Origin: Acidiferrobacterales bacterium | GTDB lineage: Bacteria; Pseudomonadota; Gammaproteobacteria; Acidiferrobacterales; SZUA-150 | Length of the DNA: 64,000 bases | Direction of reading: 5' to 3' | Assembly (NCBI GenBank): GCA_947258385.1 | Contig: CAMYII010000033.1 | Coordinates: 31,529-95,528, forward strand | Shown here: positions 17,945 to 37,018 of the stretch, one piece after another | How the letters are laid out: every line of letters begins with the position of its first letter | How positions within the stretch are numbered: the stretch's first letter is position 1 | Program-made: the position numbers and the translations under genes | Notes under the pieces: model-generated | Databases searched by the model: none | What the model was told of the DNA's origin: nothing | The model's input: only the letters and a program-made list of their open reading frames with translations

Positions 17945-18802
17945 TTATGTCGAATCGCGCGACACGGTCCAAGGCCGTGGCGCGGAGTCGCAGCCGTAAC
18001 AATCGGTGGCCGCGGCCGGCGTGACCGCCGCCGGCGGGCGGGTGGCAAGCGCCAGCGCCGCGGCGATAAGGCAGGTGCTCACCACGATGGTCAACCCGCC
18101 GCGCAAGGAGCGGTACCACGCGGGCAAGCGGTCGCGGCGCACGAGCGAGGCGTCGAAAAAATACTGTCCGATGAAGGCCGCGAGCATCACCGCGATGGTC
18201 TGCGTTGGCGGTAACACAAAGCTCCCCCAGGCGACCAAGGCCGGAACCACGCTGAGCGACATCGGCAGCCACAAGGCGCTGTCAGACTGATCGCGCTGAC
18301 TCAGCGCGCGGCCCCAATGCACCGCGCCGACGAAGGAGAGAATCACCGCGCTGTATAACAGAAGCAGGCGCAGCGCGTCGGCGCGCCATGCCCCGGGTGC
18401 CCACCACAGGGCGGCGGCACCGATGATAAAAGGAATCAGGCCGCCGATGCCGAGGACCCTGGCGGGCCACGGTATTTTTTTGTTCGACGAACCCGCAACG
18501 CCAAAGTCATAGGCGAACAACTCGTCATAACCACCGATGAAGCGACCATCGGCGAAGACCTGCGGCAGGGTCTGCCAACCGGTTTGGTCTTGCAGCTCAT
18601 GAAATCGCTCGCGCATCGCCGGCGCGGCCATCCCTATAAGCGCGACATGACACGACACGCCGAGCCGCTTGAGGTGCGCGATCATGGCGCGGATATCCGT
18701 CAGGTTGGAGACAAAGATGACGACGCGGGCCTTGCGGATTTCGTCACGGAAATACCCATAATCGCTGTCACTACCTTGCATGGTTTGAATCGCGGTGTTC
18801 AT
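17945..18802 (-). CDS. glutaredoxin-like domain (no active-site Cys) fused to a DUF3429-like membrane domain
   Basis: From ATG 18802-18800 (MNTAIQ...). VVIFVSNLTD...TLPQVFADGRFIGGYDELF has a Grx fold signature but SNLTD in place of CPYC. It is followed by 4-5 TM segments (GGLIPFIIGAAALWW...SFVGAVHWG). The ATG overlaps the gpx stop (ATGA). Confidence 0.75.
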   Translation of the reverse strand: MNTAIQTMQGSDSDYGYFRDEIRKARVVIFVSNLTDIRAMIAHLKRLGVSCHVALIGMAAPAMRERFHELQDQTGWQTLPQVFADGRFIGGYDELFAYDFGVAGSSNKKIPWPARVLGIGGLIPFIIGAAALWWAPGAWRADALRLLLLYSAVILSFVGAVHWGRALSQRDQSDSALWLPMSLSVVPALVAWGSFVLPPTQTIAVMLAAFIGQYFFDASLVRRDRLPAWYRSLRGGLTIVVSTCLIAAALALATRPPAAVTPAAATDCYGCDSAPRPWTVSRDST

Positions 18803-19362
18803 TTGCCACCCCCTTGTCGGTCTAGCTCCTGGCGGATCGCCCGCAAGACGGTCGGATGCCCCGGCTCGAGCGCGGTGTCGAAACTGGCGACCAGCCCACC
18901 TTCGCGCCCAAGCAGGTATTTGTGGAAGTTCCACCGCGGGTAGCCGCCGGCCAGTGTCGCGAGCTTCTGATAAAACGGATGGGCGCGCGCGCGGTCGACA
19001 TGGATCTTCTCGAACATGGGAAACTGTACGCCGTAGGTGAGCCGGCAGAACGCCTTGATCTGCTTCTCGCTACCGGGTTCCTGGCCGGCGAAGTCGTTCG
19101 ACGGAAAGCCCAACACCACCAGCCCCTGGTCCTTATATGTCTCGTACAGCGTCTCCAGGCCGGAATACTGGTCGGTGTAGGCGCATTTGCTGGCGGTGTT
19201 GACGACCAGCACCACCTTGCCGGCATAACGCTCGCACAGCCGCACCCGCTCCTCGCCGGCGAGCGTGCGGAGGCTGAAATCCAAAGTGGCGGGACAGCTC
19301 GCGGCCTGGGCCAATGGACTCGAGGCGAGCCAGAGCACGATTCCGACGAGATCTGTACGCAT
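18799..19362 (-). CDS. glutathione peroxidase (Cys-type), with signal peptide
   Basis: Contains VVLVVNTASKCAYT, LVVLGFPSNDFAGQEPG and WNFHKYLL. Confidence 0.95.
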   Translation of the reverse strand: MRTDLVGIVLWLASSPLAQAASCPATLDFSLRTLAGEERVRLCERYAGKVVLVVNTASKCAYTDQYSGLETLYETYKDQGLVVLGFPSNDFAGQEPGSEKQIKAFCRLTYGVQFPMFEKIHVDRARAHPFYQKLATLAGGYPRWNFHKYLLGREGGLVASFDTALEPGHPTVLRAIRQELDRQGGGK

Positions 19363-19495
19363 AACACCCTCCTTTTTCTGCCGGGCAGCGTAAGGAAGAT
19401 CAGTATATGTATAATAATTGTAGATGTCTATACCTGGTAAACCTTATTATATATACCCTAAATAATCACAGAATTACTAATAATACTGGACAGGC

Positions 19496-19524
19496 TTGAC
19501 GCATCTGTACAGGTAATGTATAAG
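19496..19524 (+). promoter_or_regulatory. sigma70-like promoter TTGACG-N17-TATAAG with the palindrome CTGTACAG in the spacer
   Basis: The -35 element is at 19496-19501 and the -10 element at 19519-24. The 8-bp palindrome is at 19505-19512. It lies in an AT-rich divergent region between gpx and the regulator operon. Confidence 0.5.
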
Positions 19525-19553
19525 AATTTTTCAAGCTACCTAGGAGGCCAATC

Positions 19554-19679
19554 ATGCATGAACTTGTCATCAGTACCATCGGGTCCCTGGTCCTGATCGC
19601 CTTAGCCATGGGATTCCTGCGCCAACCGCTGCGCCGGGTCCTGGTGGCGCGGGATCAGCGCAAGCGGCGCCCGCAGTAG
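19554..19679 (+). CDS. unannotated 41-codon ORF: single TM helix plus Arg-rich tail
   Basis: AGGAGG (19542-19547) lies 6 nt before the ATG. The product is MHELVISTIGSLVLIALAMGFLRQPLRRVLVARDQRKRRPQ*, with GC-rich third positions like neighbouring genes. It is below the 60-aa cutoff of the ORF track. Confidence 0.55.
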   Translation: MHELVISTIGSLVLIALAMGFLRQPLRRVLVARDQRKRRPQ

Positions 19680-19719: not shown

Positions 19720-20652
19720 ATGAACACAGCAAACCTCAAGCCCAGCGCCGAAAGCGAGCTCTATCCCATCCGCACGGTGGCCACGGTCACCGGGGTTAAC
19801 CCCATTACCCTGCGCGCCTGGGAGAGGCGCTATGGGCTGATCCAGCCGCAGCGCACCGGCAAAGGCCACCGGCTGTACAGCCGTGAGGACATCGACAAGA
19901 TCCGACGGGTGGTGGCGCTGCTGGACAAGGGCCTGTCCATCGGCCAGGTCCGTCACGCGCTGGCGCGCAGCCCCAGCGCGGAGGGTCAAATGCGCGACCC
20001 GGGTCCGTGGACACGCTATCAGGCGGCCATGATGGCAGCGGTGATCGATTTCGACGAGAACGGCCTGGAGGCGATCTACAACGAGGCGCTGTCGCTCTAC
20101 CCCGTGGATATCGTTACCCGGCGGCTGCTGCTGCCGCTGCTCGAGCAGCTCGGCGAGCGCTGGCGCGCGGCCGAGGGCAGTATCGCCGAGGAGCACTTCT
20201 TCGGCGTATATCTGCGCAACAAGCTGGGGGCACGCTTCCACCACCGCCACCGGCATAACACCGGGCCGACGCTGCTGGCCGCCTGCCTGCCCGGTGAGCA
20301 GCACGAGCTCGGCCTGCTGCTGTTCGCGCTTTCGGCACACGAGCATGGCTACCGCCTGGTACTACTCGGCGCCGACCTGCCCCTGCAGGAACTGCCGGCG
20401 GCGGTGCGGCGCACCGGTGCCGACACCGTCGTCCTGTCCGGCTCACACAAACCCGCACCGGCGCTGTTCGCTATCGAGCTGCCCGCGCTCACCCGCGAGG
20501 TCACGATTCCCGTATTCATCGGCGGCGCGGTGTCGGTGCGCCACCACGACGTCATTGTGCGCGCCGGCGCCACGCCCGTCGGCAGCGACATCGAGCACGG
20601 ACTGACAACGATCGGCCGCACGCTCGGACACCACGAGGAGAACACGCGATGA
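19720..20652 (+). CDS. MerR-family regulator with C-terminal cobalamin-binding domain (LitR/CarH-like)
   Basis: The MerR HTH is YPIRTVATVTGVNPITLRAWERRYGL..R..GHRLYS. The C-terminal domain carries E-Q-H-E-L-G (20296-20313), which is the D/E-x-H-x-x-G lower-ligand motif, followed by a Rossmann-like VVLSGS. Confidence 0.85.
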   Translation: MNTANLKPSAESELYPIRTVATVTGVNPITLRAWERRYGLIQPQRTGKGHRLYSREDIDKIRRVVALLDKGLSIGQVRHALARSPSAEGQMRDPGPWTRYQAAMMAAVIDFDENGLEAIYNEALSLYPVDIVTRRLLLPLLEQLGERWRAAEGSIAEEHFFGVYLRNKLGARFHHRHRHNTGPTLLAACLPGEQHELGLLLFALSAHEHGYRLVLLGADLPLQELPAAVRRTGADTVVLSGSHKPAPALFAIELPALTREVTIPVFIGGAVSVRHHDVIVRAGATPVGSDIEHGLTTIGRTLGHHEENTR

Positions 20653-21716
20653 ATACAGCCAGCAGCAAGGCCATCCAGTGGACGGAACAGGGCTACGTGC
20701 CCGATGTCGCCATCCGTCACGGCATCCGGCAACTGATCAGGCAGCGCCTGGCCGAGCTTCACGATGGCGACTGCGAGACCGCGGGCAAGATCACGGAAAC
20801 CTTCGTCGCCGCCATGAACCGCGCCGAAATCGCGCCGCTGCCGCACAAGGCCAATGAGCAGCATTATGAAGTGCCGGCTGAGTTCTTTGACGCGGTGCTC
20901 GGGACACACCGCAAGTACAGCAGCTGCTACTGGCCGGCGGAGGTCGGCACACTCGATCAGGCCGAGGCGGCGGCGCTGCGCGTGACCTGCGAACGCGCGG
21001 CGCTGGCCGATGGCATGCAGATCCTCGAGCTCGGCTGCGGCTGGGGCTCGCTGACCCTGTGGATGGCGGCGCACTATCCGAACAGCGCCGTCACGGCCGT
21101 GTCCAATTCCGGTTCGCAGCGGGATTTCATTTTAGGGGAAGCCGAACGGCGAGGCCTCAAGAATATCGAGGTCATCACCCGCGACATGAACGAGTTCGAT
21201 ATCGATAAGCGCTTTGACCGCATCGTCTCGGTGGAGATGTTCGAGCACATGCGCAACTATCGCCGGCTGTTCGCGCGGATTCACGACTGGCTCGTACCCG
21301 GCGGACGGTTTTTCATGCACATCTTCTGCCACCGCGCCACGCCGTATGAGTTTATCGACAACGGGCCGGGCGACTGGATGAGTCGCCATTTCTTCTCCGG
21401 CGGCATCATGCCGAGCGACGAGCTACCGCTACGCTTCCAGGAGCATCTGCGCCTGCTCGAGCGCTGGCGCTGGGACGGACGTCACTACGAGAAAACCGCC
21501 AACGCCTGGCTCGCCAATATGGACCGGCGCAAGGCCCTGATGTGGCCGATCCTTGAACGCACTTACGGCGTGGGGGAAGCCACACGCTGGTGGACGCGCT
21601 GGCGGATCTTCTTCATGGCCTGCGCCGAGCTTTTCGGTTACGGGCAGGGGCAACAGTGGTGGGTGAGTCATTACCTATTCGAGCGGCCGGCCGCAGACGC
21701 GAAGGCGCGAGGCTAA
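20649..21716 (+). CDS. cyclopropane-fatty-acyl-phospholipid synthase-family SAM methyltransferase
   Basis: Contains HYEVPAEFF, ILELGCGWGSL, SVEMFEHM and FMHIF. The start overlaps the regulator stop (ATGA). Confidence 0.9.
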   Translation: MNTASSKAIQWTEQGYVPDVAIRHGIRQLIRQRLAELHDGDCETAGKITETFVAAMNRAEIAPLPHKANEQHYEVPAEFFDAVLGTHRKYSSCYWPAEVGTLDQAEAAALRVTCERAALADGMQILELGCGWGSLTLWMAAHYPNSAVTAVSNSGSQRDFILGEAERRGLKNIEVITRDMNEFDIDKRFDRIVSVEMFEHMRNYRRLFARIHDWLVPGGRFFMHIFCHRATPYEFIDNGPGDWMSRHFFSGGIMPSDELPLRFQEHLRLLERWRWDGRHYEKTANAWLANMDRRKALMWPILERTYGVGEATRWWTRWRIFFMACAELFGYGQGQQWWVSHYLFERPAADAKARG

Positions 21717-21722
21717 GCCGGC

Positions 21723-22262
21723 ATGAACATTCTGATAAATTTCATCGCTTTTCAACTCGGATGGTTCGCCTGCGTGCTGGGCGGCGCCTATGGTTGGCCG
21801 TGGGCCGGGACCGGGCTCGCCATGGCCATCGTCGTGCTGCATCTCGCGCGGGCGCAGGACCCGGCGCCGGAGCTCGCGCTCATCGCGCTTGCCGCGCTGC
21901 TCGGCGCCGCGTTCGACAGCCTGCTGGTGACCCTCGGATGGCTGTCTTATGCCTCCGGCACGCTCGTCCAGGGCACCGCGCCCCATTGGATGGTCGCGCT
22001 GTGGATGCTGTTCGCCACCACACTGAACGTCACGCTGTGCTGGCTGAAGGGGCGCTGGGCACTGGCCGCCGTATTGGGTGCCGTGGCCGGGCCGCTGGCT
22101 TATATCGCAGGCCACAAGCTCGGTGCCCTCGAGTTCGTAAACCCGCCAAACGGACTGATTGCGCTCGCCGCCGGCTGGGGGCTGTTGATGCCCGCGCTGA
22201 TAGCGCTGTCCGTGCGCTTCGACGGTATGACAACCGCGCGCTGGGCAAATCAACCGACCTGA
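21723..22262 (+). CDS. DUF2878-like membrane protein
   Basis: 179 aa with 5 hydrophobic segments (INFIAFQLGWFACVLG...). The family call is from memory of its co-occurrence with cfa-type clusters. Confidence 0.7.
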   Translation: MNILINFIAFQLGWFACVLGGAYGWPWAGTGLAMAIVVLHLARAQDPAPELALIALAALLGAAFDSLLVTLGWLSYASGTLVQGTAPHWMVALWMLFATTLNVTLCWLKGRWALAAVLGAVAGPLAYIAGHKLGALEFVNPPNGLIALAAGWGLLMPALIALSVRFDGMTTARWANQPT

Positions 22263-22281
22263 ACCGGAAAGGGCTGAGACC

Positions 22282-23058
22282 ATGTTCGACCTGAACGCCT
22301 ATCTGTGGGGACTGACAGCGATCCTGATCGCCGCGGTGCTCGCCTGGTTGATGGGCCTGTTCAAACGCGATGTCAGCATTGTCGACAGCCTGTGGTCGCT
22401 GTTCTTCCTGCTGGCCGCCGCCGTTTACGCGGCCGCGGCACCGGATGCGGGACCGCGCACGCTGCTCGTGCTCGCGCTGGTCGTCGTCTGGGCCCTGCGC
22501 CTGTCGGCTTACATCACCTGGCGCAACCGGGGCGAGGGCGAGGACTGGCGCTATCAGGCCATCCGCCGCAACAATGAACCGCATTTCGCCATCAAGAGCC
22601 TGTATATCGTCTTCGGGTTGCAGGGCCTGCTCGCCTGGCTGATTTCCCTGCCGCTGTTGGCCGCCATAGGCTCCGGCACCGCGATCAACGCGCTGGATTT
22701 TATCGGCGTGGGTCTGTGGACCGCCGGCATGGCCTTCGAGGCCGGCGGTGATTATCAGCTCGCGCGCTTCAAGGCGCGCGCGGAGCACCAGGGCAAGGTC
22801 ATGGACCAGGGTCTTTGGCGCTACACGCGCCACCCGAATTACTTCGGTGAGTTCTGCATCTGGTGGGGCTTTTATGCGATCGCGCTCGCCGGCGGCGCAT
22901 GGTGGGCCGTCGTCTCCCCGCTCGTCATGACGGGACTCTTGCTGCGGGTCTCAGGCGTAGCGCTGATGGAGAAAGACATCGGCGAGCGCCGCCCCGCCTA
23001 TCGCGAGTACATCACCCGAACCAATACCTTCTTCCCCGGTCCGCCGCGGAAGGCCTGA
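22282..23058 (+). CDS. DUF1295 / steroid 5-alpha-reductase-like membrane protein
   Basis: Contains GLWRYTRHPNYFGEFCIWWGF near the C-terminus and is multi-TM. Confidence 0.85.
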   Translation: MFDLNAYLWGLTAILIAAVLAWLMGLFKRDVSIVDSLWSLFFLLAAAVYAAAAPDAGPRTLLVLALVVVWALRLSAYITWRNRGEGEDWRYQAIRRNNEPHFAIKSLYIVFGLQGLLAWLISLPLLAAIGSGTAINALDFIGVGLWTAGMAFEAGGDYQLARFKARAEHQGKVMDQGLWRYTRHPNYFGEFCIWWGFYAIALAGGAWWAVVSPLVMTGLLLRVSGVALMEKDIGERRPAYREYITRTNTFFPGPPRKA

Positions 23059-23085
23059 GGCCGACAGACTGCGAGGAGGTGGATC

Positions 23086-23745
23086 ATGACACGCATGCTC
23101 AAGCAATCGTCTCAAATGCTCAGGGCCTGGCTGCTGGCCGCGGCGCTGGTCTTTGCGGCCGACGCCGGCGCCAATCAGGCCCGCGAATGGCGCTTTACCG
23201 TTTTTCTGGATAACAAAAAAATCGGCTATCACCACTTCAGCCTGAAGCAACTCGGGCGCAGGCAACGGCTCGACAGCGAGGCCCGTTTCAAAGTCAAGTT
23301 CCTGCTCTTCGATGCCTACCGCTATGAGCACAATAACGTCGAATGGTGGCGGGGCAACTGCCTCGCCGGTATCCAGTCCCGTACCGATGACAACGGCGAG
23401 ACCTTTTCCGTGCAGGGCGGCATCGCGCGAGACCGTTTCACCGTCGAGACCGGGCTGGAAAACAAGACCCTGCCACCGTGTGTAGTGAGCTTCGCCTACT
23501 GGAATCCCGCGCTGCTCGCGCGGCCGCGGCTGCTCAATGCACAGACCGGTGAGTACGTGGAGGTCACGGTGACGCCCCTGGGTCCGGACACCGTCACCGT
23601 GCGCGGCGAGCCGGTGCCGGCCTACCGCTATCGCCTGAGCGGCGAGGACCTGGCGATCGATCTCTGGTATTCGCCCGACAATCACTGGCTGGCCCTGGAA
23701 TCGACACTCGAGGGCGGACGCAAGCTGCGCTACCGCATGCAGTGA
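23086..23745 (+). CDS. secreted DUF3108/DUF6134-like protein
   Basis: Has a GAGGAGG RBS and a signal peptide (AWLLAAALVFAADAGA). It is beta-rich and the family call is tentative. Confidence 0.65.
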   Translation: MTRMLKQSSQMLRAWLLAAALVFAADAGANQAREWRFTVFLDNKKIGYHHFSLKQLGRRQRLDSEARFKVKFLLFDAYRYEHNNVEWWRGNCLAGIQSRTDDNGETFSVQGGIARDRFTVETGLENKTLPPCVVSFAYWNPALLARPRLLNAQTGEYVEVTVTPLGPDTVTVRGEPVPAYRYRLSGEDLAIDLWYSPDNHWLALESTLEGGRKLRYRMQ

Positions 23746-23775
23746 TTTGCCGGACACGCCGCACCCATTGAAGGA

Positions 23776-24321
23776 ATGACTGTGAAGAAAGCCATGATAA
23801 TGCTCTCACTTGTGACGCCCGCGTTGCTAGTCGGCTGTCAGACCGCGAGGCCGCCGATCGAGACGGTGGGCTATGTCGATCTCGAGCGCTTTATGGGCGA
23901 CTGGTATGTGTTCGCCAGCATCCCGACCTTCATCGAAAAGGGCGCGCACAATGCCGTGGAATCCTACCGGCTGACCGAGGAAGGCACCATCGAGACCACA
24001 TTCAGCTTCCGGCAGGGCGGCTTCGACGGCGAGCGTAAACGTTACCGTCCCACGGGCTTCGTGCGAGACAAAGAATCCAACGCCGTCTGGGGCATGCAGT
24101 TCCTGTGGCCGATCAAGGCCGACTACCGCGTGATCTATCTCAAGGAGGACTACAGCCAAACGGTCATCGGCCGCAACCAGCGCGACTACGTCTGGGTCAT
24201 GGCGCGCACACCGTCCATCCCCGAGACCGACTATGCCCGCATCAAGCGCCTGCTCAAGCAACAGGGCTATGATGTCTCGCAGCTGCAGCAAGTCCCGCAG
24301 CGTTGGGAGCAGGCGTCATGA
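23776..24321 (+). CDS. blc: bacterial lipocalin (Blc-like) lipoprotein
   Basis: Has the lipobox LLVGC and VDLERFMGDWYVFASIP. The exact start is uncertain (ATG 23776, GTG 23782 or ATG 23794). Confidence 0.85.
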   Translation: MTVKKAMIMLSLVTPALLVGCQTARPPIETVGYVDLERFMGDWYVFASIPTFIEKGAHNAVESYRLTEEGTIETTFSFRQGGFDGERKRYRPTGFVRDKESNAVWGMQFLWPIKADYRVIYLKEDYSQTVIGRNQRDYVWVMARTPSIPETDYARIKRLLKQQGYDVSQLQQVPQRWEQAS

Positions 24322-25292
24322 ATCGACCCGACTTTCATCCCCCGCAAACCGGTACCGGCCTGTGGCGGCGGCTCGCGCGCTGGTTCGACAACGAGGCCGG
24401 CGGCGATCACGGCACGGCGGTGGACCCGGCACGCATCGACTGGCTGCGCCTGCTTCCGTTCATCGCCATGCACCTTATGTGCCTGGGGGTGATCTGGGTG
24501 GGATGGAGCCCGGTCGCGCTCGGCGTGGCGGTGGCGCTTTACGGCCTTCGCATGTTCGCGATCACGGGTTTTTATCATCGCTATTTCTCGCACCGGTCCT
24601 TCCGCACGACGCGGGGGCTGCAGTTCGTGTTCGCCCTGCTCGGCGCCACGGCCGGCCAGCGCGGGCCTTTGTGGTGGGCGGCGCATCACCGGCGCCACCA
24701 CGCGCGTTCGGATCAGGCCGCCGATCTGCACTCCCCGGTGCGGCACGGCTTCCTCTGGAGCCATATGGGCTGGTTCATGGCCGCCGAGAGCTTCCCCACG
24801 GACCTCAAAGCGGTGCCCGACCTCGCCCGCTATCCGGAGCTGCACTGGCTGGACCGCTTCGATACGCTCGTGCCGCTGGCGCTGGCGCTGGCGCTTTATG
24901 GGCTGGGCGAGCTGCTCGACTTTACCGCGCCCTCGCTTGGGACCGACGGGCCGCAGATGCTGATCTGGGGATTCTTCGTCTCCACCGTGGTGCTGTATCA
25001 CGTGACCTATACGATCAACTCCGTCGCCCACCGCTTCGGCCGTCGCCGCTACCGCACGCGCGACAACAGCCGCAACAACGGCTGGCTGGCGCTGCTCACC
25101 TTCGGCGAGGGCTGGCACAACAACCATCACCACTATCCGGGGTCGGCACGGCAGGGGTTCTACTGGTGGGAGATCGACATCACCTATTACCTGCTGCTGC
25201 TGCTCGCGCGCCTGCGACTGATCTGGGACTTGAGGCCGGTGCCGGTCGCAGTGCGCGACGCCCGGCGTACCGACTCGGGTGCACCGGCATGA
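24318..25292 (+). CDS. membrane acyl-CoA/acyl-lipid fatty acid desaturase
   Basis: Has the three His boxes HRYFSHRSF, HHRRHHARSD and WHNNHHHYP. ATG 24318 overlaps the lipocalin stop (ATGA). The track start at 24303 is a TTG. Confidence 0.9.
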   Translation: MNRPDFHPPQTGTGLWRRLARWFDNEAGGDHGTAVDPARIDWLRLLPFIAMHLMCLGVIWVGWSPVALGVAVALYGLRMFAITGFYHRYFSHRSFRTTRGLQFVFALLGATAGQRGPLWWAAHHRRHHARSDQAADLHSPVRHGFLWSHMGWFMAAESFPTDLKAVPDLARYPELHWLDRFDTLVPLALALALYGLGELLDFTAPSLGTDGPQMLIWGFFVSTVVLYHVTYTINSVAHRFGRRRYRTRDNSRNNGWLALLTFGEGWHNNHHHYPGSARQGFYWWEIDITYYLLLLLARLRLIWDLRPVPVAVRDARRTDSGAPA

Positions 25293-26578
25293 ACGCCCGC
25301 AAGCGCATCGCCGTCATCGGCACCGGCATCGCCGGCATGGTCGCCGCCTACAGGCTGCATCGCGATCACGAAATCACCGTGTTCGAGGCCAATGACTACA
25401 TCGGCGGTCATACCCACACCCACGACATCGAGCTCGGCGGCTGGCGCCACGCCGTCGACAGCGGCTTCATCGTCTTCAACGACTGGACCTATCCGAACTT
25501 CATCAGACTTCTGGACGAGCTCGGCGTCGAATCGCAACCCTCGAACATGAGCTTCAGCGTCAAGTGCGAGCGCACGGGCCTGGAATACAACGGGACGTCC
25601 TTGAACACCCTGTTCGCGCAGCGGCGTAATCTGCTGCGACCGTCTTTCCATCGCATGATCCGCGATATTCTGCGCTTCAATCGCGAGGCCCCGGCGCTGC
25701 TCGATCAAAGCGATGATCGTGTCACGCTCGGCGAGTTCCTCTCGGCCCAGGGCTATTCGCCCGGCTTCATCGATCACTACATCGTGCCCATGGGGGCGGC
25801 GATCTGGTCCACCGACCCCGTGCGGATGCTCGGGTTTCCGGCGCGCTACTTCGTGCGCTTCCTGCACAACCACGGCATGCTCAGCGTCAACGACCGGCCC
25901 GTGTGGCGGGTGATCAAAGGCGGCTCGGCGCGCTATAGCGAACGGCTGACGGCGGCCTACCGGGAGCGCATTCAGTTGAACTCACCGATCGCGTGGATCC
26001 GGCGCCAGGCTTCCCATGTCGAAATCAAACCCGCCGGCCACGAGGCGCAGCGCTTCGATGCGGTATTCATCGCCACCCACAGCGACCAGGCGCTGAGTCT
26101 GCTGGCGGACGCCACGGCGACAGAGCGCGAGGTCCTGGGCGCGATTCCATACCAGGCGAACGAGGCCGTGCTGCACACGGATACTGCCATGCTACCCAGG
26201 CGCCGGCGCGCCTGGGCCGCCTGGAACTATCACGTACTGCGGCAGCAAGCCGGCCCCGTGGCCCTTACCTATAATATGAACATCCTGCAAGGACTCCACG
26301 CGCCGCAGACCTTCTGCGTCACCCTGAACCACGGCGACGCGATCGACCCCGCGCGCATCATTAAACGCATGCGCTATCACCATCCGCTCTACACCCCGGA
26401 AGGCGTGGCGGCCCAGCAACGTCATGCCGAGATCAACGGCGTCAAGCGCACCTTTTACTGCGGGGCCTACTGGCGCTTCGGTTTTCACGAGGACGGCGTG
26501 GTGAGCGCGCTTTCGGCTTACGAGCATTTTACGGAGTGGCTACGCCATGAAGAGCTGCATCTACGAAGGACGGGTTAG
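25289..26578 (+). CDS. FAD/NAD(P)-binding amine-oxidase-like oxidoreductase
   Basis: RIAVIGTGIAGMVAAYRL is a dinucleotide-binding motif. The start ATG 25289 overlaps the desaturase stop (ATGA). It forms the in-frame C-terminal part of the artefactual 781-aa track ORF. Confidence 0.9.
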   Translation: MNARKRIAVIGTGIAGMVAAYRLHRDHEITVFEANDYIGGHTHTHDIELGGWRHAVDSGFIVFNDWTYPNFIRLLDELGVESQPSNMSFSVKCERTGLEYNGTSLNTLFAQRRNLLRPSFHRMIRDILRFNREAPALLDQSDDRVTLGEFLSAQGYSPGFIDHYIVPMGAAIWSTDPVRMLGFPARYFVRFLHNHGMLSVNDRPVWRVIKGGSARYSERLTAAYRERIQLNSPIAWIRRQASHVEIKPAGHEAQRFDAVFIATHSDQALSLLADATATEREVLGAIPYQANEAVLHTDTAMLPRRRRAWAAWNYHVLRQQAGPVALTYNMNILQGLHAPQTFCVTLNHGDAIDPARIIKRMRYHHPLYTPEGVAAQQRHAEINGVKRTFYCGAYWRFGFHEDGVVSALSAYEHFTEWLRHEELHLRRTG

Positions 26579-27323
26579 ACACCGCCGCTTCACGCCGGCC
26601 GAGAACGGCTTCAGCTATTCGCTGTTCATGCTGTATCTCGACCTGGCCGAGCTGCCGGCGCTGTTCGACCGCCACTGGCTGTGGTCGGCGCGACGCTTCA
26701 ACCTCGCCTGGTTCCGCCGCGCCGATCATATGGGCGATCCGGCGGTACCGCTCGCGACCGCGGTGCGCGATCTGGTGCAAGCCGAAACCGGCCGCCGGCC
26801 GGCCGGCCCCATTCGGCTCCTGACCCACCTGCGCTATTTCGGCTATGGCTTCAACCCGGTGAGCTTCTACTACTGCTTCGATCGGCAGGATCAGCGGGTC
26901 GAGACCATCGTCGCCGAGGTCAACAACACGCCCTGGGGCGAGCGTCATTGCTACGTGCTCGATGAACGGCTCAACGAGGGGCACGGCAGCAACAAACGCT
27001 ATCGCTTTGACAAGCGCTTTCATGTCTCGCCCTTCATGGAAATGGCGCTCGATTACGACTGGCGCTTCAATACGCCGGCGGATCGTCTCGCGGTGCACAT
27101 GGCCAATTGGAAAAACGGCGCGCGGCTCTTCGACGCCACACTGACGCTGGAGCGCAAGGCCGTAGGCGCGCCGGTCTTGGCGCGCACGCTGGCGACCCAC
27201 CCCTTCATGACCGGCAAGGTGATCGCCATGATCTACTGGCAGGCGCTCAAACTCTGGTGGAAGCGAGTGCCGTTTCATACCCATCCCACGAAGCCCAAGC
27301 ACGCGGAGGTGAAAGAGCCATGA
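26547..27323 (+). CDS. DUF1365 family protein
   Basis: MKSCIYEGRVRHRRF...FSYSLFMLYLDL is the characteristic N-terminus. It overlaps the upstream gene by 32 nt. Confidence 0.9.
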   Translation: MKSCIYEGRVRHRRFTPAENGFSYSLFMLYLDLAELPALFDRHWLWSARRFNLAWFRRADHMGDPAVPLATAVRDLVQAETGRRPAGPIRLLTHLRYFGYGFNPVSFYYCFDRQDQRVETIVAEVNNTPWGERHCYVLDERLNEGHGSNKRYRFDKRFHVSPFMEMALDYDWRFNTPADRLAVHMANWKNGARLFDATLTLERKAVGAPVLARTLATHPFMTGKVIAMIYWQALKLWWKRVPFHTHPTKPKHAEVKEP

Positions 27324-28582
27324 GCGCAAACCCGATTCCTGTCGCCATCGATGAGCCCGGATCTGGCGCCACGGGCTGGCTCGACCGGCTCGCGCGCCGC
27401 GCCGTGCATACCCGCCTGCAGGCGTTGCAAGACGGCAGTGTCATCCTCATCGACGGGGGCAGACCCTCCCTGTTTGGCACTCAAGACGATTCACTGTGGG
27501 CGACCGTGCGGGTGCACGACCCGCGCTTTTATACCGAGATCGCCTTCGGCGGCAGCGTGGGCGCGGGCGAGGCCTATATGCGGGGCTACTGGAGCTGCGA
27601 TGACCTGACCGCGCTCGTTCGCATCATGCTGCGCAACCGCGAGCTGCTCGACGGCATGGAGACCGGGCTGGCGCGGGCCTCGGCACCCGCACTCAGGGCC
27701 TTTCACTGGCTGCACCGCAACACCCGGCGCGGCAGCCGGCGCAATATCGGCGCGCACTACGACCTCGGCAACGCGCTCTTCGCGCTCATGCTCGATGAGA
27801 CCATGATGTACTCCTGCGGCATCTTCGAGCACGAGGACAGCACCCTGTACGACGCGTCCGTCGCCAAGAACGAGCGCATCTGCCGCGAGCTCGAGCTCAC
27901 CCCCGACGATCACCTGCTCGAGATCGGCACCGGCTGGGGCGGCTTCGCCATTCATGCCGCGCGGCATTACGGCTGCCGGGTGACGACCACGACGATTTCA
28001 GAGGAACAATACGCGCTGGCGCGCGAGCGCATTGAACAGGCCGGGCTCAGCGGGCGTATCACAGTGCTGCTCGAGGATTACCGTAATCTAAAGGGCCGGT
28101 ACGACAAGCTCGTGTCCATCGAGATGATCGAGGCCGTGGGTCATGCCTATTACGACACCTATTTCAAGACCTGCGGCGAGTTGCTCAAACCCGAGGGCAG
28201 GATGCTGCTTCAGGCCATCACCATCGCCGATCAACAATACGAGCGTGCTAGACGCTCGGTTGATTTCATCCAGCGTTACATCTTTCCCGGAAGCTGCATC
28301 CCATCGGTGACGGCGCTTTGCAACGCCATCACCCGCGCCTCCGACATGCGCCTGTCTCATCTGGAGGACATCGGCCCGCACTACGCCACCACCCTGCGGC
28401 ACTGGCGGTCACGCTTCTTCGCCAACATCGATCGCGTGCGCGCGCTGGGCTATCCCGAACGCTTCATCCGCATGTGGGAGTTTTATCTCTGCTATTGCGA
28501 GGGCGGCTTTGCCGAACGCGCCACCAGCGATGTACATATGCTGCTGACCAAGCCCCACTGTCGACCGACAGATGTTTCGTAG
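27320..28582 (+). CDS. cfa: cyclopropane-fatty-acyl-phospholipid synthase-like methyltransferase
   Basis: Contains HYDLGNALFALMLDETMMYSC, LLEIGTGWGGFA, SIEMIEAVG and FYLCYCEGGF. ATG 27320 overlaps the DUF1365 stop (ATGA). Confidence 0.9.
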   Translation: MSANPIPVAIDEPGSGATGWLDRLARRAVHTRLQALQDGSVILIDGGRPSLFGTQDDSLWATVRVHDPRFYTEIAFGGSVGAGEAYMRGYWSCDDLTALVRIMLRNRELLDGMETGLARASAPALRAFHWLHRNTRRGSRRNIGAHYDLGNALFALMLDETMMYSCGIFEHEDSTLYDASVAKNERICRELELTPDDHLLEIGTGWGGFAIHAARHYGCRVTTTTISEEQYALARERIEQAGLSGRITVLLEDYRNLKGRYDKLVSIEMIEAVGHAYYDTYFKTCGELLKPEGRMLLQAITIADQQYERARRSVDFIQRYIFPGSCIPSVTALCNAITRASDMRLSHLEDIGPHYATTLRHWRSRFFANIDRVRALGYPERFIRMWEFYLCYCEGGFAERATSDVHMLLTKPHCRPTDVS

Positions 28583-28681: not shown

Positions 28682-29056
28682 CTACTTTTCCACCATGTCC
28701 GCCTTGGTGCTTTCAATGAACGCAAGCACCTCGCCCCGTTCTTGCTCGGGCAGCTGAAATTTGTCCAGCGTGGCGTTCACGTGCCCAATGAATGCACTCC
28801 AGTCGCTCTCGCTGATTCCCATTCCCTTGTGCGAAAGCGCCATATCCCGCCCCGTGTAATACAGCGGACCTCCTGCGCTGGAACACAAGAAATCGATCAA
28901 TAACTGTTTCTCACGCTGCAGCCCGTCTTCCCCTCTGTTCTGCCAGAAGCGCCCCAGTTGCGGGTCCGCCATCAAACGCGGGAGAAGGTCGTCGACGACG
29001 GCGGTGACGGCATCGTAGCCACCGAGACGGGCGTATAAGGTTTGTGCTGCGCTCAT
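28682..29056 (-). CDS. group 1 truncated haemoglobin
   Basis: 124 aa. Contains LYARLGGYDAVTAVVDDL, FW and the MALSHKGMGISESDW pattern. Confidence 0.9.
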   Translation of the reverse strand: MSAAQTLYARLGGYDAVTAVVDDLLPRLMADPQLGRFWQNRGEDGLQREKQLLIDFLCSSAGGPLYYTGRDMALSHKGMGISESDWSAFIGHVNATLDKFQLPEQERGEVLAFIESTKADMVEK

Positions 29057-29199: not shown

Positions 29200-30402
29200 T
29201 CATCCATAGCGGCCGTCGACACGCGGCTGGACAAGCATTGGGAAATAGTTCCAGAGAAACACGGTAAATGCGGATATCCACAGAATCTGGGAAAAGGCAA
29301 TCCATATTTGATAATGCGTTGAATCAAATAACGGCAAAAATACCCTGATAGCCGCGCTACCCAACAGCGCCGCAAACACCGGAAACAGAATCGCGGGTGG
29401 CTCAGAGATGTTTCGTCCTGTGTGGCCCAGTATTACACGCGCCATCATGCCCACTGTCATCACGCCGATACCGCCAACGGCAAATGCGTGTATGGCGAGG
29501 TAAGGGGATACGCCTAGCACATAGCTGAAAAACTTCAGCGCAAAGCCGACGACCAGGAAGCCATAGGCAAGATAGAGCACCCACAGCAATGGCTTCCTGA
29601 AGATTTCAGCCGTATACCATCCCGCCATTTTGATCCCGTGCATCACAAACAGGATTCCCGCCAGCCCGGCGATGAGTCCGTGATAGCTGGTAAACACATC
29701 CAGGACGGCGAATATCGCGAACAGCACGACAGTTGACACATCCAACCACGACCAATTCTTTAATGCTACGGGATTGTCGACGCCCCGCTCGATAAAAAAA
29801 GGAATCACTCTTCTGCCAATGACAAAAATAAGACTGAGTATGACATAAAGGCCGGCGTACAAGCCCCAATGAAGCCCTTCCGACAACCAACCCAGAGCGC
29901 CCATGTAAAAGACCAGGTTACCGCAAAGCAGTAACGCAACATGCAGGATGACCAGGAGCTGTCGCCACTGTCTCGCCTTGATCACGGGATATGAGATCGC
30001 CGCGAGCAGAGTGCCCATGAACAGCATATCGAAGCCGGCCATCATCGCCACGATAAACTCCGCGTGGATAAAGGACGCCGCCCGCGCCAGCAGCCAGAGC
30101 GTGAATAGCGCGAGCAACGGGAACCGATGAACCGTCTGCACCCCGGTCCAGTTCTTCACAGCCGTCAGCAAAAAACCCGCGATCACGGCGACAGCATAGC
30201 CGTAGATCAGTTCATGGGCATGCCAGAGCTGCAGCGAAAGCCCCGCCAGCCCACCCTGCCAGCCCAGAAAGTAAAGCGCCATCCATACCCCCATGGACAG
30301 GATCGCCAAACCGGCCGCGCCCAGGAAAAACGGGCGGAATCCTAGATGAAGCAATGGATAGCTAAGGTCGTTGTTATTCGTGTTTCCCTCTATGGTAAGC
30401 AT
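29200..30402 (-). CDS. nnrS: NnrS family haem-copper membrane protein
   Basis: From ATG 30402 (or 30414): LLHLGFRPFFLGAAG, with about 12 TM segments and a length of about 400 aa. The N-terminal 62 residues of the track ORF look non-coding. Confidence 0.85.
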   Translation of the reverse strand: MLTIEGNTNNNDLSYPLLHLGFRPFFLGAAGLAILSMGVWMALYFLGWQGGLAGLSLQLWHAHELIYGYAVAVIAGFLLTAVKNWTGVQTVHRFPLLALFTLWLLARAASFIHAEFIVAMMAGFDMLFMGTLLAAISYPVIKARQWRQLLVILHVALLLCGNLVFYMGALGWLSEGLHWGLYAGLYVILSLIFVIGRRVIPFFIERGVDNPVALKNWSWLDVSTVVLFAIFAVLDVFTSYHGLIAGLAGILFVMHGIKMAGWYTAEIFRKPLLWVLYLAYGFLVVGFALKFFSYVLGVSPYLAIHAFAVGGIGVMTVGMMARVILGHTGRNISEPPAILFPVFAALLGSAAIRVFLPLFDSTHYQIWIAFSQILWISAFTVFLWNYFPMLVQPRVDGRYG

Positions 30403-30452
30403 GACTGTTCCCATCCCTATAACTGACGATAATGAGTCTTCAACAGCCGATC

Positions 30453-32000
30453 CTAATGGCTCGTCCCCGCCGACCGGGTGATCTTGTTGTGGACGTTGTA
30501 TTTTCCCGACGGTTTTCTCATGGGCAGGCGTTTGATCTCTTTCAGGCTCTTGGCGTCGTAGACCACCACCGCGCCGTCCATGTCCCAAATGCTGAGCAGC
30601 GCGTAACGACCGTCCTTGGTGAACTCGACATGGGCGGCGGTCTTGCCGGGGGCGGGCCTGAGGGTCTTGACGATCTTGAGGCTGCGCTTGTCGATAACAT
30701 GCACGAGGTCTTTGTTGGGACCGAAGAACACATCGACCCAGGCATAGGGCGTGTTCTCATGCGAGCGCATGAAAAAGCCCGGTCCTTTAGTGTCGATGCG
30801 CTTGATCGTCTTCCAGTTTGTCATGTCGATGACGCTGACCACCCCTGCTTTCAGGTTCGGCGTGGCCAACACCGGCCGCCCTTTATACTCCCAGGTAATG
30901 CCCGAGCCCAGGTGCGGCATGCCCGGGAGATCGATGTCGGCGATCTTGCGTCCGACGATGAGGTTCACCACCTGGCCGTTCTTGGCGTTGCGCGCGGCGC
31001 CGATCAGATGGCGGTAGGACTGATCGAAGAAAAAGTCGTCAAGATAGTCGTCCAACCGGATACGGCGCACCGGGAACGCGCCTTTGGCGGCCAGGCCCTC
31101 GCCCATGCGGTAATCGTGCACCAGGCCCGGATAGACCGGCTCGGCGTCCTTACCGTAGGGGATCTCCCAGACCTCGGGGATGTCCTTCAACGCAGCGATA
31201 AAGCTCTGCCGCGGCGCGGCGTCGTAAACCGCGCTGACGCGCGAGCCGCTGCCGGCCTTGTCCTGCACCGCGATGAGCTTTAACGGCGTGAGATCAACGG
31301 CGTCCAGCACCACCAGGGTGTGCGGCAGGTAATTGGCCACCATGACATAGCGCCCGTCGCTGGATACGGCCGCGTTGCGGGTGTTGATGCCGGCGCGAAT
31401 CTCGGCAACGAGGCTTAAGCTGTACATATCGAACTTGCTGATCCAGCCGTCGCGCGAGGCCAGGTAGACGAAACGCCCGTCGGGCGAGTACTTGGGCCCG
31501 CCGTGCAGGGCAAAGCGCGTGGCGAAGCGATGAATGGGCTCAAAGCGGTCGCCGTCGAGCACGGTGGCGTGATGATCCCCCAGTTCCACCACCAGAAACA
31601 GGTTCAAGGGGTCGGCCTTGTAGGCCGGTCTGGCCGGCAGCTTCGTTGGGTCATGGTGCAGGATGTGGGAGGCCTTGATCTTTTCCAGACCCCAGACCGG
31701 CACCTGCGGCAGCGGCGTATAGATCAGCTCGACCAGCGCCTGTGTCTGCCCGGTGTTGAGCCTCTTGCCATAGGCCGGCATCTGGGTCGCCGGCCGCCCG
31801 GCCTCGATCACCTTGCGCGCCTCGGCGCGCCGCAAGCGCCGCAGGTTCTCCGGCAGCAGCGCCGGTCCCATGCGCCCTAAGCGGTCACTGCCGTGGCAGC
31901 TCGCGCAGTGCGCCTGATACAACCGCTCGGTGGGCGGGGTCTCGCCCGCCTGCGCCGCCCCGGGCAGCGCCAGCAGCAGGAAAGTGAGCACTCGCTTCAT
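30453..32000 (-). CDS. nirN: cytochrome cd1-family protein NirN (haem d1 maturation)
   Basis: Has a signal peptide, a single CASCH c-type domain, and then a d1-type beta-propeller sequence. It follows nirJ. Confidence 0.8.
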   Translation of the reverse strand: MKRVLTFLLLALPGAAQAGETPPTERLYQAHCASCHGSDRLGRMGPALLPENLRRLRRAEARKVIEAGRPATQMPAYGKRLNTGQTQALVELIYTPLPQVPVWGLEKIKASHILHHDPTKLPARPAYKADPLNLFLVVELGDHHATVLDGDRFEPIHRFATRFALHGGPKYSPDGRFVYLASRDGWISKFDMYSLSLVAEIRAGINTRNAAVSSDGRYVMVANYLPHTLVVLDAVDLTPLKLIAVQDKAGSGSRVSAVYDAAPRQSFIAALKDIPEVWEIPYGKDAEPVYPGLVHDYRMGEGLAAKGAFPVRRIRLDDYLDDFFFDQSYRHLIGAARNAKNGQVVNLIVGRKIADIDLPGMPHLGSGITWEYKGRPVLATPNLKAGVVSVIDMTNWKTIKRIDTKGPGFFMRSHENTPYAWVDVFFGPNKDLVHVIDKRSLKIVKTLRPAPGKTAAHVEFTKDGRYALLSIWDMDGAVVVYDAKSLKEIKRLPMRKPSGKYNVHNKITRSAGTSH

Positions 32001-32004
32001 GGAT

Positions 32005-33201
32005 TCACCCGGCCGTGCGCCGGGCGCTGTAGGGGGTCAGTTGCAGACGTGCGGTCGATCCGCTCACACCGATTTCCTCATCATCGAGGTAACAGGCCGG
32101 GTCCTCAGCCCAGGGATCACCGCTCAGCTGGTGGGCGCGCACACGGGTGTTGCCGCCGCAGACATCGAGGTAGCGGCACTGCCCGCAGCGGCCCTTGAGC
32201 GGGCGCGGGCGTGCTTTAAGCCCGGCCATGAGGGGATCGGAGGTGTCCGGCCAGATCTCGGAGAACGGGCGTTCGCGCACATTGCCCAAGCGATAATGCC
32301 ACCAGAAGGTATCCGGATGGACGTCGCCAACGTTGTCGATGTTGGCGATGTTGACCCCGGAGGAATTGCCGCCCCACTGCGCGAGCTTCGCGCGCAGATG
32401 GGCCTCGCGTTCCGGAAAGTGTTCTCTGACCCATTGCAACAGATACACGCCGTCGGCATCGTTGTTGCCGGTGACGTACTCGCGCGGCCGGCCTTCCTGC
32501 AGCTGGCGCCAGCAGGCCTCGAACAACAGGTCCATGGCCTGTCGCGTGGTGGCGAGCACGGCATCGTCCCTGCGGTTGATGTTGCCGCGGCCGGCGTAGT
32601 TCAGATGGGACAGGTAAAACTTCTCGATACCAAGGCGTCCCATCAACGCCAGCAGCGACGGCAGCTCGGGTGCGTTGTCCCGCGTCAGCGTGAAGCGCAT
32701 GCCGACCTTGATGCCGTGGTCGTGGCACAGCTCCATCGCCCGCACCGAGGCATCGAAGGCGCCGGCCTTGCGCCGGAACCTGTCATGGGTATCTCGCAGC
32801 CCATCGATACTGATGCCGACATAGTCGTAGCCGAGCGCCGCAATCCGATTGATGTTGCGCTCGTCGATCAGAGTGCCGTTGGTGGACAGCCCGACGTAAA
32901 AACCCATGGCCTTGGCACGCCCGGAAATCTCATAGATGTCCGGGCGCAACAGCGGCTCGCCGCCGGAGAGGATCAGCACCGGCACGCCGAACTGTTTGAG
33001 ATTGTCCATCACCGTGTAGACCTCGTCGGTCGACAGCTCGCCGGGGAAGTCCTTGTCCGCCGATATCGAGTAACAGTGCTTGCAGGTGAGGTTGCAGCGG
33101 CGGATCAGGTTCCAGATCACGACGGGGCCGGGGGGGTTACGCTTCGGCCCGATTGGTGTCGGTTCGATCAGCTCCTGCATGTATTGGGTTAGACGGAACA
33201 T
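32005..33201 (-). CDS. nirJ: radical SAM haem d1 biosynthesis protein NirJ
   Basis: Has the CNLTCKHCY radical SAM motif and a C-terminal Cys cluster (CGQCRYLDVCGG). Confidence 0.9.
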   Translation of the reverse strand: MFRLTQYMQELIEPTPIGPKRNPPGPVVIWNLIRRCNLTCKHCYSISADKDFPGELSTDEVYTVMDNLKQFGVPVLILSGGEPLLRPDIYEISGRAKAMGFYVGLSTNGTLIDERNINRIAALGYDYVGISIDGLRDTHDRFRRKAGAFDASVRAMELCHDHGIKVGMRFTLTRDNAPELPSLLALMGRLGIEKFYLSHLNYAGRGNINRRDDAVLATTRQAMDLLFEACWRQLQEGRPREYVTGNNDADGVYLLQWVREHFPEREAHLRAKLAQWGGNSSGVNIANIDNVGDVHPDTFWWHYRLGNVRERPFSEIWPDTSDPLMAGLKARPRPLKGRCGQCRYLDVCGGNTRVRAHQLSGDPWAEDPACYLDDEEIGVSGSTARLQLTPYSARRTAG

Positions 33202-33262
33202 AATAAATCAGATACAAGATACAAGTTGCAAGGTACAAGTTGCGAAAGAAGCGTGTATTGAT

Positions 33263-33400: not shown

Positions 33401-33413
33401 ATTCCGATTGCCC

Positions 33414-33941: not shown

Positions 33942-33954
33942 CAACGCTACCGGC

Positions 33955-37014: not shown

Positions 37015-37018
37015 GTCA

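Follow-up and report, generated by a model that had tools for sequence, protein, structure and literature searches.

Why should a MerR-family regulator with a cobalamin-binding domain stand at the head of a run of genes for fatty-acid modification? The question is raised by ten plus-strand genes at positions 19720–28582 of the window, i.e., the whole 64,000-nucleotide stretch of an Acidiferrobacterales contig (CAMYII010000033.1, assembly GCA_947258385.1) that was analyzed here. The answer that we favor on sequence evidence, with a probability of roughly 0.6, is that these genes form an autoregulated, light-derepressed operon that would convert the acyl chains of existing membrane phospholipids to methylated furan fatty acids acting as scavengers of radicals and singlet oxygen; a CarH-type B12 (cobalamin) light sensor most likely switches on the furan-lipid enzymes. 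Coordinates are those of the window throughout, and labels of the type L001 or L075 denote related loci recovered by regulator homology. A profile search of the window proteins provided Pfam domain support for each of the ten genes (aa, amino acids; SAM, S-adenosylmethionine; FAD, flavin adenine dinucleotide):

19720–20652, plus: MerR regulator, 310 aa (MerR_1 67.5 bits, B12-binding_2 44.2, B12-binding 31.3 with a cut-off of 32.1)
20649–21716, plus: gene 2, SAM methyltransferase, 355 aa (Pfam CMAS 132 bits)
21723–22262, plus: gene 3, DUF2878 membrane protein, 179 aa (Pfam 150 bits)
22282–23058, plus: gene 4, DUF1295 membrane protein, 258 aa (DUF1295 238.6 bits, Steroid_dh 37.7)
23086–23745, plus: gene 5, DUF6134 exported protein, 219 aa (Pfam 167.5 bits)
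23776–24321, plus: gene 6, lipocalin, 181 aa (Lipocalin_2 136 bits)
24318–25292, plus: gene 7, membrane desaturase, 324 aa (FA_desaturase 73 bits)
25289–26578, plus: gene 8, UfaD-like FAD oxidoreductase, 429 aa (Amino_oxidase 80.9, NAD_binding_8 57.4)
26547–27323, plus: gene 9, UfaO-like DUF1365 protein, 258 aa (DUF1365 300.6 bits over the full profile length)
27320–28582, plus: gene 10, UfaM-like Cfa-family methylase, 420 aa (CMAS 285 bits)

Both the coordinates and the Pfam assignments bear out the layout described in a first-pass annotation of this DNA, namely ten same-strand genes with four ATGA overlaps and one 32-nt overlap: the ATGA start/stop overlaps are read from the sequence at 20649, 24318, 25289 and 27320, genes 8 and 9 share 26547–26578, and the remaining intergenic gaps in the operon are all ≤30 nt. 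Nine of the Pfam families in its gene list also stand, but the protein listed there as DUF3108-like is a DUF6134 protein. The regulator gene has no obvious ribosome-binding site, and a terminator scan gave weak GC-rich hairpins alone, none of them convincing as the end of the operon. A 781-aa open reading frame (ORF) at 24233–26578 was rejected as a GC-driven artefact (65% G+C), the Pfam domains and homologues fitting the plus-strand gene set, and long minus-strand ORFs inside the operon were likewise rejected as GC by-products without domain support.

The operon is more than a chance gathering of genes, because 22 of the 54 species-representative genomes identified by regulator homology carry all ten genes in identical order; nine of the 54 loci lack one single gene, partly through contig ends. 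The ten-gene order is also observed in a metagenome-assembled genome (MAG; L001) and over the portion covered by a 6-kb metagenomic contig (L075), which holds the nearest relative of the regulator (92%), followed by MAGs at ≤68%. Culturable carriers include Methylobacillus flagellatus, Methylovorus mays, M. menthalis and Pseudomethylobacillus aquaticus; further carriers are Methylophilales LSUCC0135 (an OM43-type marine isolate) and Methylotenera, and MAG carriers belong to Acidiferrobacterales, Steroidobacteraceae, Casimicrobiaceae and Porticoccaceae. The presence of the intact, same-order operon in culturable methylotrophs and in an OM43-type marine isolate makes the prediction directly testable. 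The regulator family (6285 matches at E ≤ 1e-10) occurs in other settings too: next to DNA photolyase genes (L005, L045, L058), a linkage that a light regulator would be expected to show, divergent from fasciclin-domain genes (L005, L018, L022), and with an SDR-SnoaL-HAD set near ufaD-ufaO-ufaM-MFS-DUF3833.

Predicted B12 photoreceptor and its candidate operators

Is the regulator of a kind that could sense light? Its residues 11–269 align with Thermus thermophilus CarH (5C8D/3WHP; E = 1.6e-34), and its domain order is a MerR-type winged helix, a four-helix bundle and a Rossmann-type B12-binding domain. True B12 photoreceptors are marked, according to published criteria, by RxWERRY, Wx9EH and D/ExHxxG-x41-SxT/V-x22-27-GG, of which Wx9EH makes the adenosyl contact and tells CarH from CarA (PMC9304148). 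In the regulator, the recognition helix reads LRAWERRYGL (residues 31–40, with RAWERRY as the RxWERRY match), Wx9EH is intact (W148-RAAEGSIAE-E158-H159, with W and H invariant and E nearly so in homologues), and the B12 motif has the exact spacing (E193-Q-H195-E-L-G198, x41, S240-G-S242, x25, G268-G269), the third position of SxT/V being Ser (S242). Thus, the E-x-H-x-x-G motif noticed earlier at 20296–20313 is confirmed as EQHELG, and the initial assignment of a LitR/CarH-type regulator with a B12-binding domain holds, both the B12-binding and the adenosyl-specific motifs being intact. The SignatureFinder light-response signature GxxW/EH/GxxH/GxxxP (PMC11796333) is present as GERW, EH, GEQH and GADLP, each ≥98% conserved in homologues. 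In an alignment of ~178 sequences, the photoreceptor motifs are kept in 57 of 58 locus homologues and in 120 of 120 database matches, and this invariance implies selection for adenosyl-B12 binding. The protein is predicted to be an adenosyl-B12 photoreceptor and repressor of the CarH/LitR class I type; identity with the Pseudomonas class II LitR proteins was ruled out by the presence of the Rossmann B12 domain and motif.

The following features are located upstream of the regulator gene:

19496–19524, plus: putative sigma-70 promoter (−35 TTGACG at 19496–19501, 17-nt spacer, −10 TATAAG at 19519–19524)
19502–19534, plus: operator candidate, three tandem 11-bp direct repeats CATCTGTACAG GTAATGTATAA GAATTTTTCAA that cover the spacer and the −10 element
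19396–19430, minus: weaker CarH-type site (TGTAYA-N5-TGTAYA with one mismatch at 19408–19424; 11/15, repeats 5/4/2)
19554–19679, plus: unannotated ORF, 41 aa, one hydrophobic helix and an Arg/Pro-rich tail, AGGAGG ribosome-binding site

The operator of CarH consists of tandem 11-bp direct repeats with the consensus nAnnTnnACAn, overlapping a sigma-70 promoter (PMC8156234). The repeats at 19502–19534 match this consensus at 5, 3 and 4 of 5 positions, respectively, and represent the only site in the 64 kb with ≥12/15 in a three-repeat scan. The 92%-identical contig (L075) retains the operon promoter, with TTGACA as its −35 element. Within the window, TGTAYA-N5-TGTAYA is matched exactly at one place (0.15 expected) and with one mismatch at another, both in the regulator-side intergenic region, and the weaker site overlaps a sigma-70-like promoter, TAGACA-17-TATACT (19430–19402, minus), facing the divergent glutathione peroxidase gene. 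In 942 kb from 56 related loci, 40 of the 46 exact repeat pairs fall in the 450 bp preceding the regulator gene, which account for 2.6% of the sequence scanned; other pairs are found just upstream of ufaD in two loci where the regulator is apart from the ufa genes (L003, L055) and upstream of the peroxidase gene in L058. The half-site differs in Methylophilaceae (TTGMAT-N5-TTGMAT) with the same 11-bp phasing, and all 14 of 14 such pairs (270 kb) are upstream of the regulator:

75–192 bp upstream of the regulator: TTGMAT repeats (L020, L028, L029, L032, L017, L026, L036, L040, L041, L049, L052)

This suggests that the recognition helix and the operator co-evolved in Methylophilaceae. The layout of the repeats is that of CarH-style tandem direct repeats and not of a MerR palindrome. 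The sites found here and in related loci are good in silico evidence for control of the operon, the ufa genes and the peroxidase gene by the regulator.

The 41-codon ORF, which separates the regulator gene from the promoter and the AT-rich intergenic region, is probably the first cistron of the operon transcript. ORFs of the same length class, character and place are found in L001, L008, L009, L013 and L019, and the counterpart in L075 is called as a gene; compared with this counterpart, 4 differences are nonsynonymous and 0 synonymous, which is no proof of coding selection.

Predicted furan fatty acid enzymes, accessory proteins and neighboring genes

What would the operon make? In the known pathway, three proteins are necessary and sufficient for conversion of phospholipid cis-vaccenate to the furan fatty acid 9M5-FuFA, namely the Cfa-like SAM methylase UfaM, the FAD oxidoreductase UfaD and UfaO, which in both R. 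sphaeroides and R. palustris is the DUF1365 protein; the gene order in R. palustris is ufaD-ufaO-ufaM (RPA2571-2569) (PMC7380195). Genes 8, 9 and 10 have this same order, as in R. palustris (PMC7380195) and in Halomonas (PMC12089945), where the Cfa-like gene beside ufaD/ufaO yields 11-methyloctadec-12-enoate in E. coli (PMC12089945). At the level of families and gene order, the earlier identification of the FAD-oxidoreductase/DUF1365/cfa core with the Ufa furan pathway is upheld; UfaM, UfaD and UfaO had correctly been named as makers of furan fatty acids, but the gene-by-gene match, with UfaO as the DUF1365 protein, had not been stated. UfaD is an NAD/FAD-binding oxidoreductase with phytoene desaturases as relatives. 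Gene 8 gives weak matches to CrtD, HpnE and phytoene desaturase models; its likeness to UfaD is at the domain level only, and its family description and gene position are as reported for UfaD (PMC7380195). By analogy, gene 8 is predicted to encode a desaturase forming the conjugated diene and gene 9 an O2-dependent enzyme forming the furan ring.

Gene 10 shares 39% identity with E. coli Cfa, the N-terminal domain included (6BQC, E = 1.1e-60). The position of E. coli Cfa His266, one of the residues that we take to form the bicarbonate site (C139, E239, H266, I268 and Y317), is Gln in 38 of 38 members of the gene 10 family, including those linked only to ufaD-ufaO. In the alignment, the non-cyclopropanating mycobacterial MmaA4 also has Gln at this position, whereas cyclopropane synthases have His. 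The score against the NCBIfam Cfa equivalog (292 bits) is below its cut-off of 400. Gene 10 is predicted to be a fatty-acyl methylase and not a cyclopropane synthase, and its lack of the cyclopropane-synthase His argues for furan-type over cyclopropane products. The question of furan or cyclopropane products, which the first-pass annotation had posed, is thereby tilted toward the former for the second of its Cfa-like proteins, with cyclopropane disfavored. Gln at the His266 position could also provide a simple sequence marker for methyl-branch-forming members of the Cfa family.

Gene 2, previously described as cfa-like, appears to fall instead into a coclaurine-N-methyltransferase/LIME/FufM-like branch, its best solved relatives being plant coclaurine N-methyltransferases (6GKV, 231 bits, vs. 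115 bits for E. coli CFAS). It has no Cfa N-terminal domain, its 30% identity to E. coli Cfa is confined to the catalytic domain, and it is 28% identical to gene 10 and scores 155 bits against the NCBIfam Cfa cut-off of 400; C139 is replaced by Ser and I268 by Phe, and the bicarbonate-site His, Glu and Tyr are kept. FufM, a distant methyltransferase that adds the second methyl group, is 26% identical to UfaM (PMC7380195) and 37.9% identical to Arabidopsis LIME1 (AT4G33110) (PMC10940516). Since gene 2 combines likeness to coclaurine N-methyltransferases with low identity to gene 10, as FufM does with respect to LIME1 and UfaM, we read it as FufM-like and as a candidate for the second (furan-ring) methylation, which is the weakest step of the pathway reading; the operon would thus potentially yield dimethyl furan fatty acids. 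In L075 (1361–2490), the gene call for the FufM-like protein covers just 133 aa and is preceded by 700 nt without any call, and this short call may reflect a frameshift or an assembly error.

The desaturase is a membrane di-iron enzyme of the stearoyl-CoA (delta-9) type (SCD1 4YMK, E = 3.4e-23, His boxes aligned) and, judged by this homology, may supply the monoenoic substrate; since it is missing from three otherwise complete loci (L016, L044, L054), it is regarded as accessory. The DUF2878 protein is an integral membrane protein with ~5 hydrophobic segments by hydropathy. The DUF1295 protein is related to steroid 5-alpha-reductase, ICMT and PEMT (SRD5A2 7BW1, E = 0.011) and might reduce C=C bonds of lipids in the membrane. 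The DUF6134 protein has a signal-like N-terminal helix, and its AlphaFold model (predicted local distance difference test score 91.3) is an open all-beta structure for which a Foldseek search gave the DUF1849 protein 6NTR as closest (template modeling score 0.63), with weaker matches to VioE, LprG, LolA, EPDR1 and MucB; the protein may bind hydrophobic ligands in the periplasm. The lipocalin is a Blc-type lipoprotein (lipobox LLVGC) that scores 79.5 bits with the NCBIfam Blc model, under its cut-off of 267. We speculate that the DUF2878, DUF1295, DUF6134 and lipocalin proteins handle modified or damaged lipids across the envelope. An Aeromonas operon combines SDR, FAD-oxidoreductase, DUF1365, cfa and DUF2878 genes (PMC10012899), and singlet-oxygen acclimation in Chlamydomonas induces CFA1/2, DUF1365, DUF1295, GPX5 and a fasciclin gene (PMC4067076). 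This operon, together with the co-induction of CFA, DUF1365, DUF1295 and GPX, supports the participation of these families in one photo-oxidative response.

Two genes on the other side of the promoter region are transcribed away from the operon:

18799–19362, minus: glutathione peroxidase, 187 aa, signal-like N-terminus (Pfam GSHPx 116 bits), divergent from the operon
17945–18934, minus: glutaredoxin-DUF3429 membrane protein (DUF3429 119.8, Glutaredoxin 24.1), downstream of the peroxidase gene

The peroxidase, homologues of which flank the operon in L016, L044, L048, L053, L054 and L058, is a probable member of the same regulon. The glutaredoxin-DUF3429 protein probably starts later than the listed GTG and has a homologue divergent from the regulator in L013; its membership in the regulon is tentative. 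Beyond the other end of the operon, a truncated bacterial globin gene (28682–29056, minus) is convergent to it. In L003 (1241–2582), a globin and a ferredoxin-reductase-type flavoprotein are encoded directly upstream of ufaD and could serve as electron donors for oxygen-dependent steps. Denitrification genes at 29200–41759 comprise NnrS, two cd1 nitrite-reductase-like genes (30453–32000 and 37418–39157), a radical-SAM NirJ-like gene, NirD/L-like regulators and a haem-copper oxidase/NorB-like gene; NnrS and the cd1 nitrite reductase cluster are, like the globin gene, convergent to the operon. From these neighbors, the host appears to be a denitrifying proteobacterium. Two large PAS-GGDEF-EAL proteins are encoded at 43088–49054 (minus) and 49508–52297 (minus), one of them with 1988 aa and about nine PAS domains; they were considered as LOV partners and rejected, the LOV cysteine motif being missing. 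A BT1-family (folate/biopterin-type) transporter is encoded 6 kb upstream (11954–13678, plus), with no repeat site found nearby; for comparison, the Pseudomonas LitR light regulon includes pterin genes.

Proposed mechanism and alternative explanations

How would these parts work together? In the dark, the regulator would bind adenosylcobalamin and oligomerize, and the oligomer would occupy the three 11-bp repeats over the spacer and −10 element, as well as the weaker site at the peroxidase promoter, blocking RNA polymerase. Ultraviolet, blue or green light would cleave the Co–C bond and release the repressor from DNA, upon which the 41-codon ORF, the regulator gene and the nine enzyme genes would be transcribed as one unit. 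As homology and gene order suggest, the desaturase would enlarge the pool of cis-monoenoic chains, gene 10 (UfaM-like) would methylate the double bond to give a methyl-branched trans-olefin, gene 8 (UfaD-like) would add a second double bond, gene 9 (UfaO-like) would insert O2-derived oxygen and close the furan ring, and gene 2 (FufM-like) may add the second ring methyl. The DUF2878, DUF1295, DUF6134 and lipocalin proteins would, speculatively, handle, repair or traffic modified or oxidized lipids.

Several observations weigh against this reading. The operon might modify membrane lipids without a furan product, giving methyl-branched, conjugated-diene, cyclopropane or other chains, with methyltransferases and a desaturase that act on different substrates; we consider this unlikely. 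The orthology of genes 8–10 to UfaD, UfaO and UfaM is putative, being drawn from family, synteny and indirect comparison, and the reading of gene 2 makes use of the place of LIME1 in the coclaurine N-methyltransferase family, for which no statement was found in the literature searched. The DUF1365 family is broad, with other members uncharacterized, and in R. sphaeroides the Cfa-like RSP1089, encoded directly after ufaO, is dispensable for FuFA synthesis (PMC7380195), which leaves synteny alone ambiguous; moreover, a Halomonas ufaM strain also forms cyclic fatty acids (PMC12089945), and gene 2 retains three bicarbonate-site residues. On the other side, all three families that suffice for 9M5-FuFA are present here, contiguous and translationally coupled, the His266-to-Gln replacement is shared by gene 10 and all of its relatives with the methyl-branch-forming MmaA4, and neither methyltransferase reaches the Cfa equivalog cut-off (292 and 155 bits vs. 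400), all of which argues for the furan pathway.

As for the signal, the regulator might not be the light sensor itself, responding instead to B12 as a nutrient, acting independently of B12 like Myxococcus CarA, or depending on a partner photoreceptor as class II LitR proteins do on a short LOV protein. In this regard, CarA keeps a B12-binding motif that it does not need (PMC8156234), very similar ufaM operons are under class II LitR proteins via LOV partners (PMC9758184), and the His132 of Thermus CarH, an upper-axial ligand that forms the light-state bis-His adduct and was found in a 2023 study to be needed for light-driven tetramer disassembly (PMC10442372), has no equivalent in the regulator. 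The position after the conserved Trp is Arg149 (20164–20166); homologues vary here, most of them having Glu, Gln or Ala and some Arg. According to published logos, a His follows the Trp in many, not all, CarH proteins (PMC9304148). The mechanism in the light state must then differ from that of Thermus, or the response could be weaker; both light-state chemistry and oligomer break-up may depart from the Thermus model. Scores under the curated cut-offs, just so for Pfam B12-binding (31.3 vs. 32.1) and widely for the NCBIfam CarH equivalog (148.1 vs. 400 bits), indicate that the regulator is a distant branch of the CarH family and not a close orthologue of the NCBIfam seed proteins. In addition, only the first of the three operator repeats is a full consensus match, no B12 synthesis or uptake features are visible in the window, and an Rfam search detected no riboswitch or other RNA family in it. 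Nevertheless, CarA lacks the Trp of Wx9EH and class II LitR proteins lack the Rossmann B12 domain, and both features are intact here and in the ~178 homologues (PMC9304148); a six-frame translation of the window contains no LOV motif of the NCRFLQ type; and the operator has the CarH design of tandem direct repeats with no MerR palindrome. Taken together, a regulator that is not itself the light sensor appears quite improbable. Still less probable, in our estimate, is a general module for oxidative or membrane stress that answers to reactive oxygen or growth conditions and not to light itself, with the repeats reflecting ordinary autoregulation. Homologous genes do respond to singlet oxygen via sigmaE/ChrR in alpha-proteobacteria and Vibrio (PMC7380195, PMC5241685), and the neighbors of the operon include the peroxidase, the glutaredoxin fusion and the respiratory/denitrification genes; yet no extracytoplasmic-function sigma/ChrR pair adjoins the operon, its only regulator is a photoreceptor-type protein, and relatives of this regulator are paired with photolyase genes. 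Stress-driven and light-driven control also overlap, since light is the usual source of the oxidants.

Beyond the light-derepressed furan-lipid operon that we favor, a bolder and rather doubtful extension envisions a complete, B12-gated system to make, use, repair and traffic antioxidant lipids, in which adenosyl-B12 would be both chromophore and permissive signal, the in-operon FufM would lead to dimethyl furan fatty acids, the DUF1295 protein would reduce the dioxo-ene left by singlet-oxygen trapping, the DUF6134 protein and lipocalin would move lipids to and from the outer membrane, and the 41-aa membrane peptide would be a new component. If so, B12-starved cells, e.g., the OM43-type B12-dependent planktonic methylotrophs that carry the operon, would express it constitutively. 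If the light-sensing reading is true, membrane defense would be tied to the availability of B12, which is ecologically limiting in many waters, B12 photoreception by CarH would extend from carotenoid control to the direct control of membrane fatty-acid chemistry, and light-induced furan-lipid genes would be reached via at least three sensors: sigmaE/ChrR, LOV with class II LitR, and adenosyl-B12 CarH. The operon also brings DUF2878, DUF1295 and DUF6134 together in a compact gene set that can help to assign their functions, and it could supply, from one operon, the genes for engineered production of mono- or dimethyl furan fatty acids.

Comparison with known systems

How new is such an operon? 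The systems regulated by class II LitR proteins in Pseudomonas come close: PplR1-3 of P. putida and PmlR1/2 of P. mendocina control a light-inducible operon with SDR, FAD-oxidoreductase, hypothetical proteins and ufaM, and the LitR-family repressors of P. mendocina allow a 25–33-fold light induction of ufaM (PMC9758184). Common to both are a MerR/LitR-family repressor beside a polycistronic operon with FAD-oxidoreductase and ufaM, and TGTACA/T(G/A)TACA hexamer sites with a sigma-70 type promoter; the light induction of the regulator gene itself in Pseudomonas is a further likeness to the operon-encoded regulator, for which such induction is a prediction only. In contrast, class II LitR has the four-helix bundle only, makes no use of B12 and loses its activity through a short LOV protein that responds to blue light, whereas the present regulator has a full B12 domain, no LOV gene is seen in the window, and the regulator gene heads the operon, which has no SDR but includes a FufM-like methylase, DUF1295, DUF6134, lipocalin and desaturase. 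The concept of a light-regulated lipid defense put forward in the first-pass annotation is supported by the sequence, but is less new than was implied, LitR-family ufaM operons having been published (PMC9758184).

With the class I CarH/LitR proteins of Thermus thermophilus, Myxococcus xanthus and Bacillus megaterium (PDB 5C8D; PMC8156234), the regulator shares the domain order, RxWERRY, Wx9EH, the lower-axial His motif and GxxxP, as well as tandem 11-bp direct repeats overlapping a sigma-70 promoter (here in silico). It differs from Thermus CarH by a modest identity and the missing His132, and class I CarH proteins control carotenoid genes, whereas the present regulator heads a fatty-acid-modification operon.

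The furan pathway of Cereibacter (Rhodobacter) sphaeroides and R. palustris has the same three protein families, the ufaD-ufaO-ufaM order of R. palustris and a second, distantly related methyltransferase (FufM), so that the likeness is set by family and order. There, however, the Ufa genes are under sigmaE/ChrR, i.e., singlet oxygen, and not a photoreceptor (PMC7380195); FufM is unlinked in R. palustris, whereas the FufM-like gene is inside the operon here; and the desaturase, lipocalin and DUF6134 genes are extra here. In Vibrio cholerae, blue light acts through the MerR-like VCA0056 and ChrR/sigmaE to induce a photolyase and a Cfa-like gene (PMC5241685), which again joins a MerR-family regulator and a Cfa-like gene in one light/photo-oxidative response of a gamma-proteobacterium. 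The Vibrio relatives of LitR (class IV) differ in reportedly being without a B12-binding domain (PMC9758184), in their proposed signal, reactive oxygen, and in the dispersal of the genes.

A B12-type CarH heading a furan-lipid operon was not found described in the literature, of which our search covered a part, so the absence of a report is no proof. Overall, B12-dependent CarH photoreceptors and light- or singlet-oxygen-induced ufa clusters are each known, and what is new in the predicted system is their combination, with a genuine B12-type CarH encoded first in an extended furan-lipid operon.

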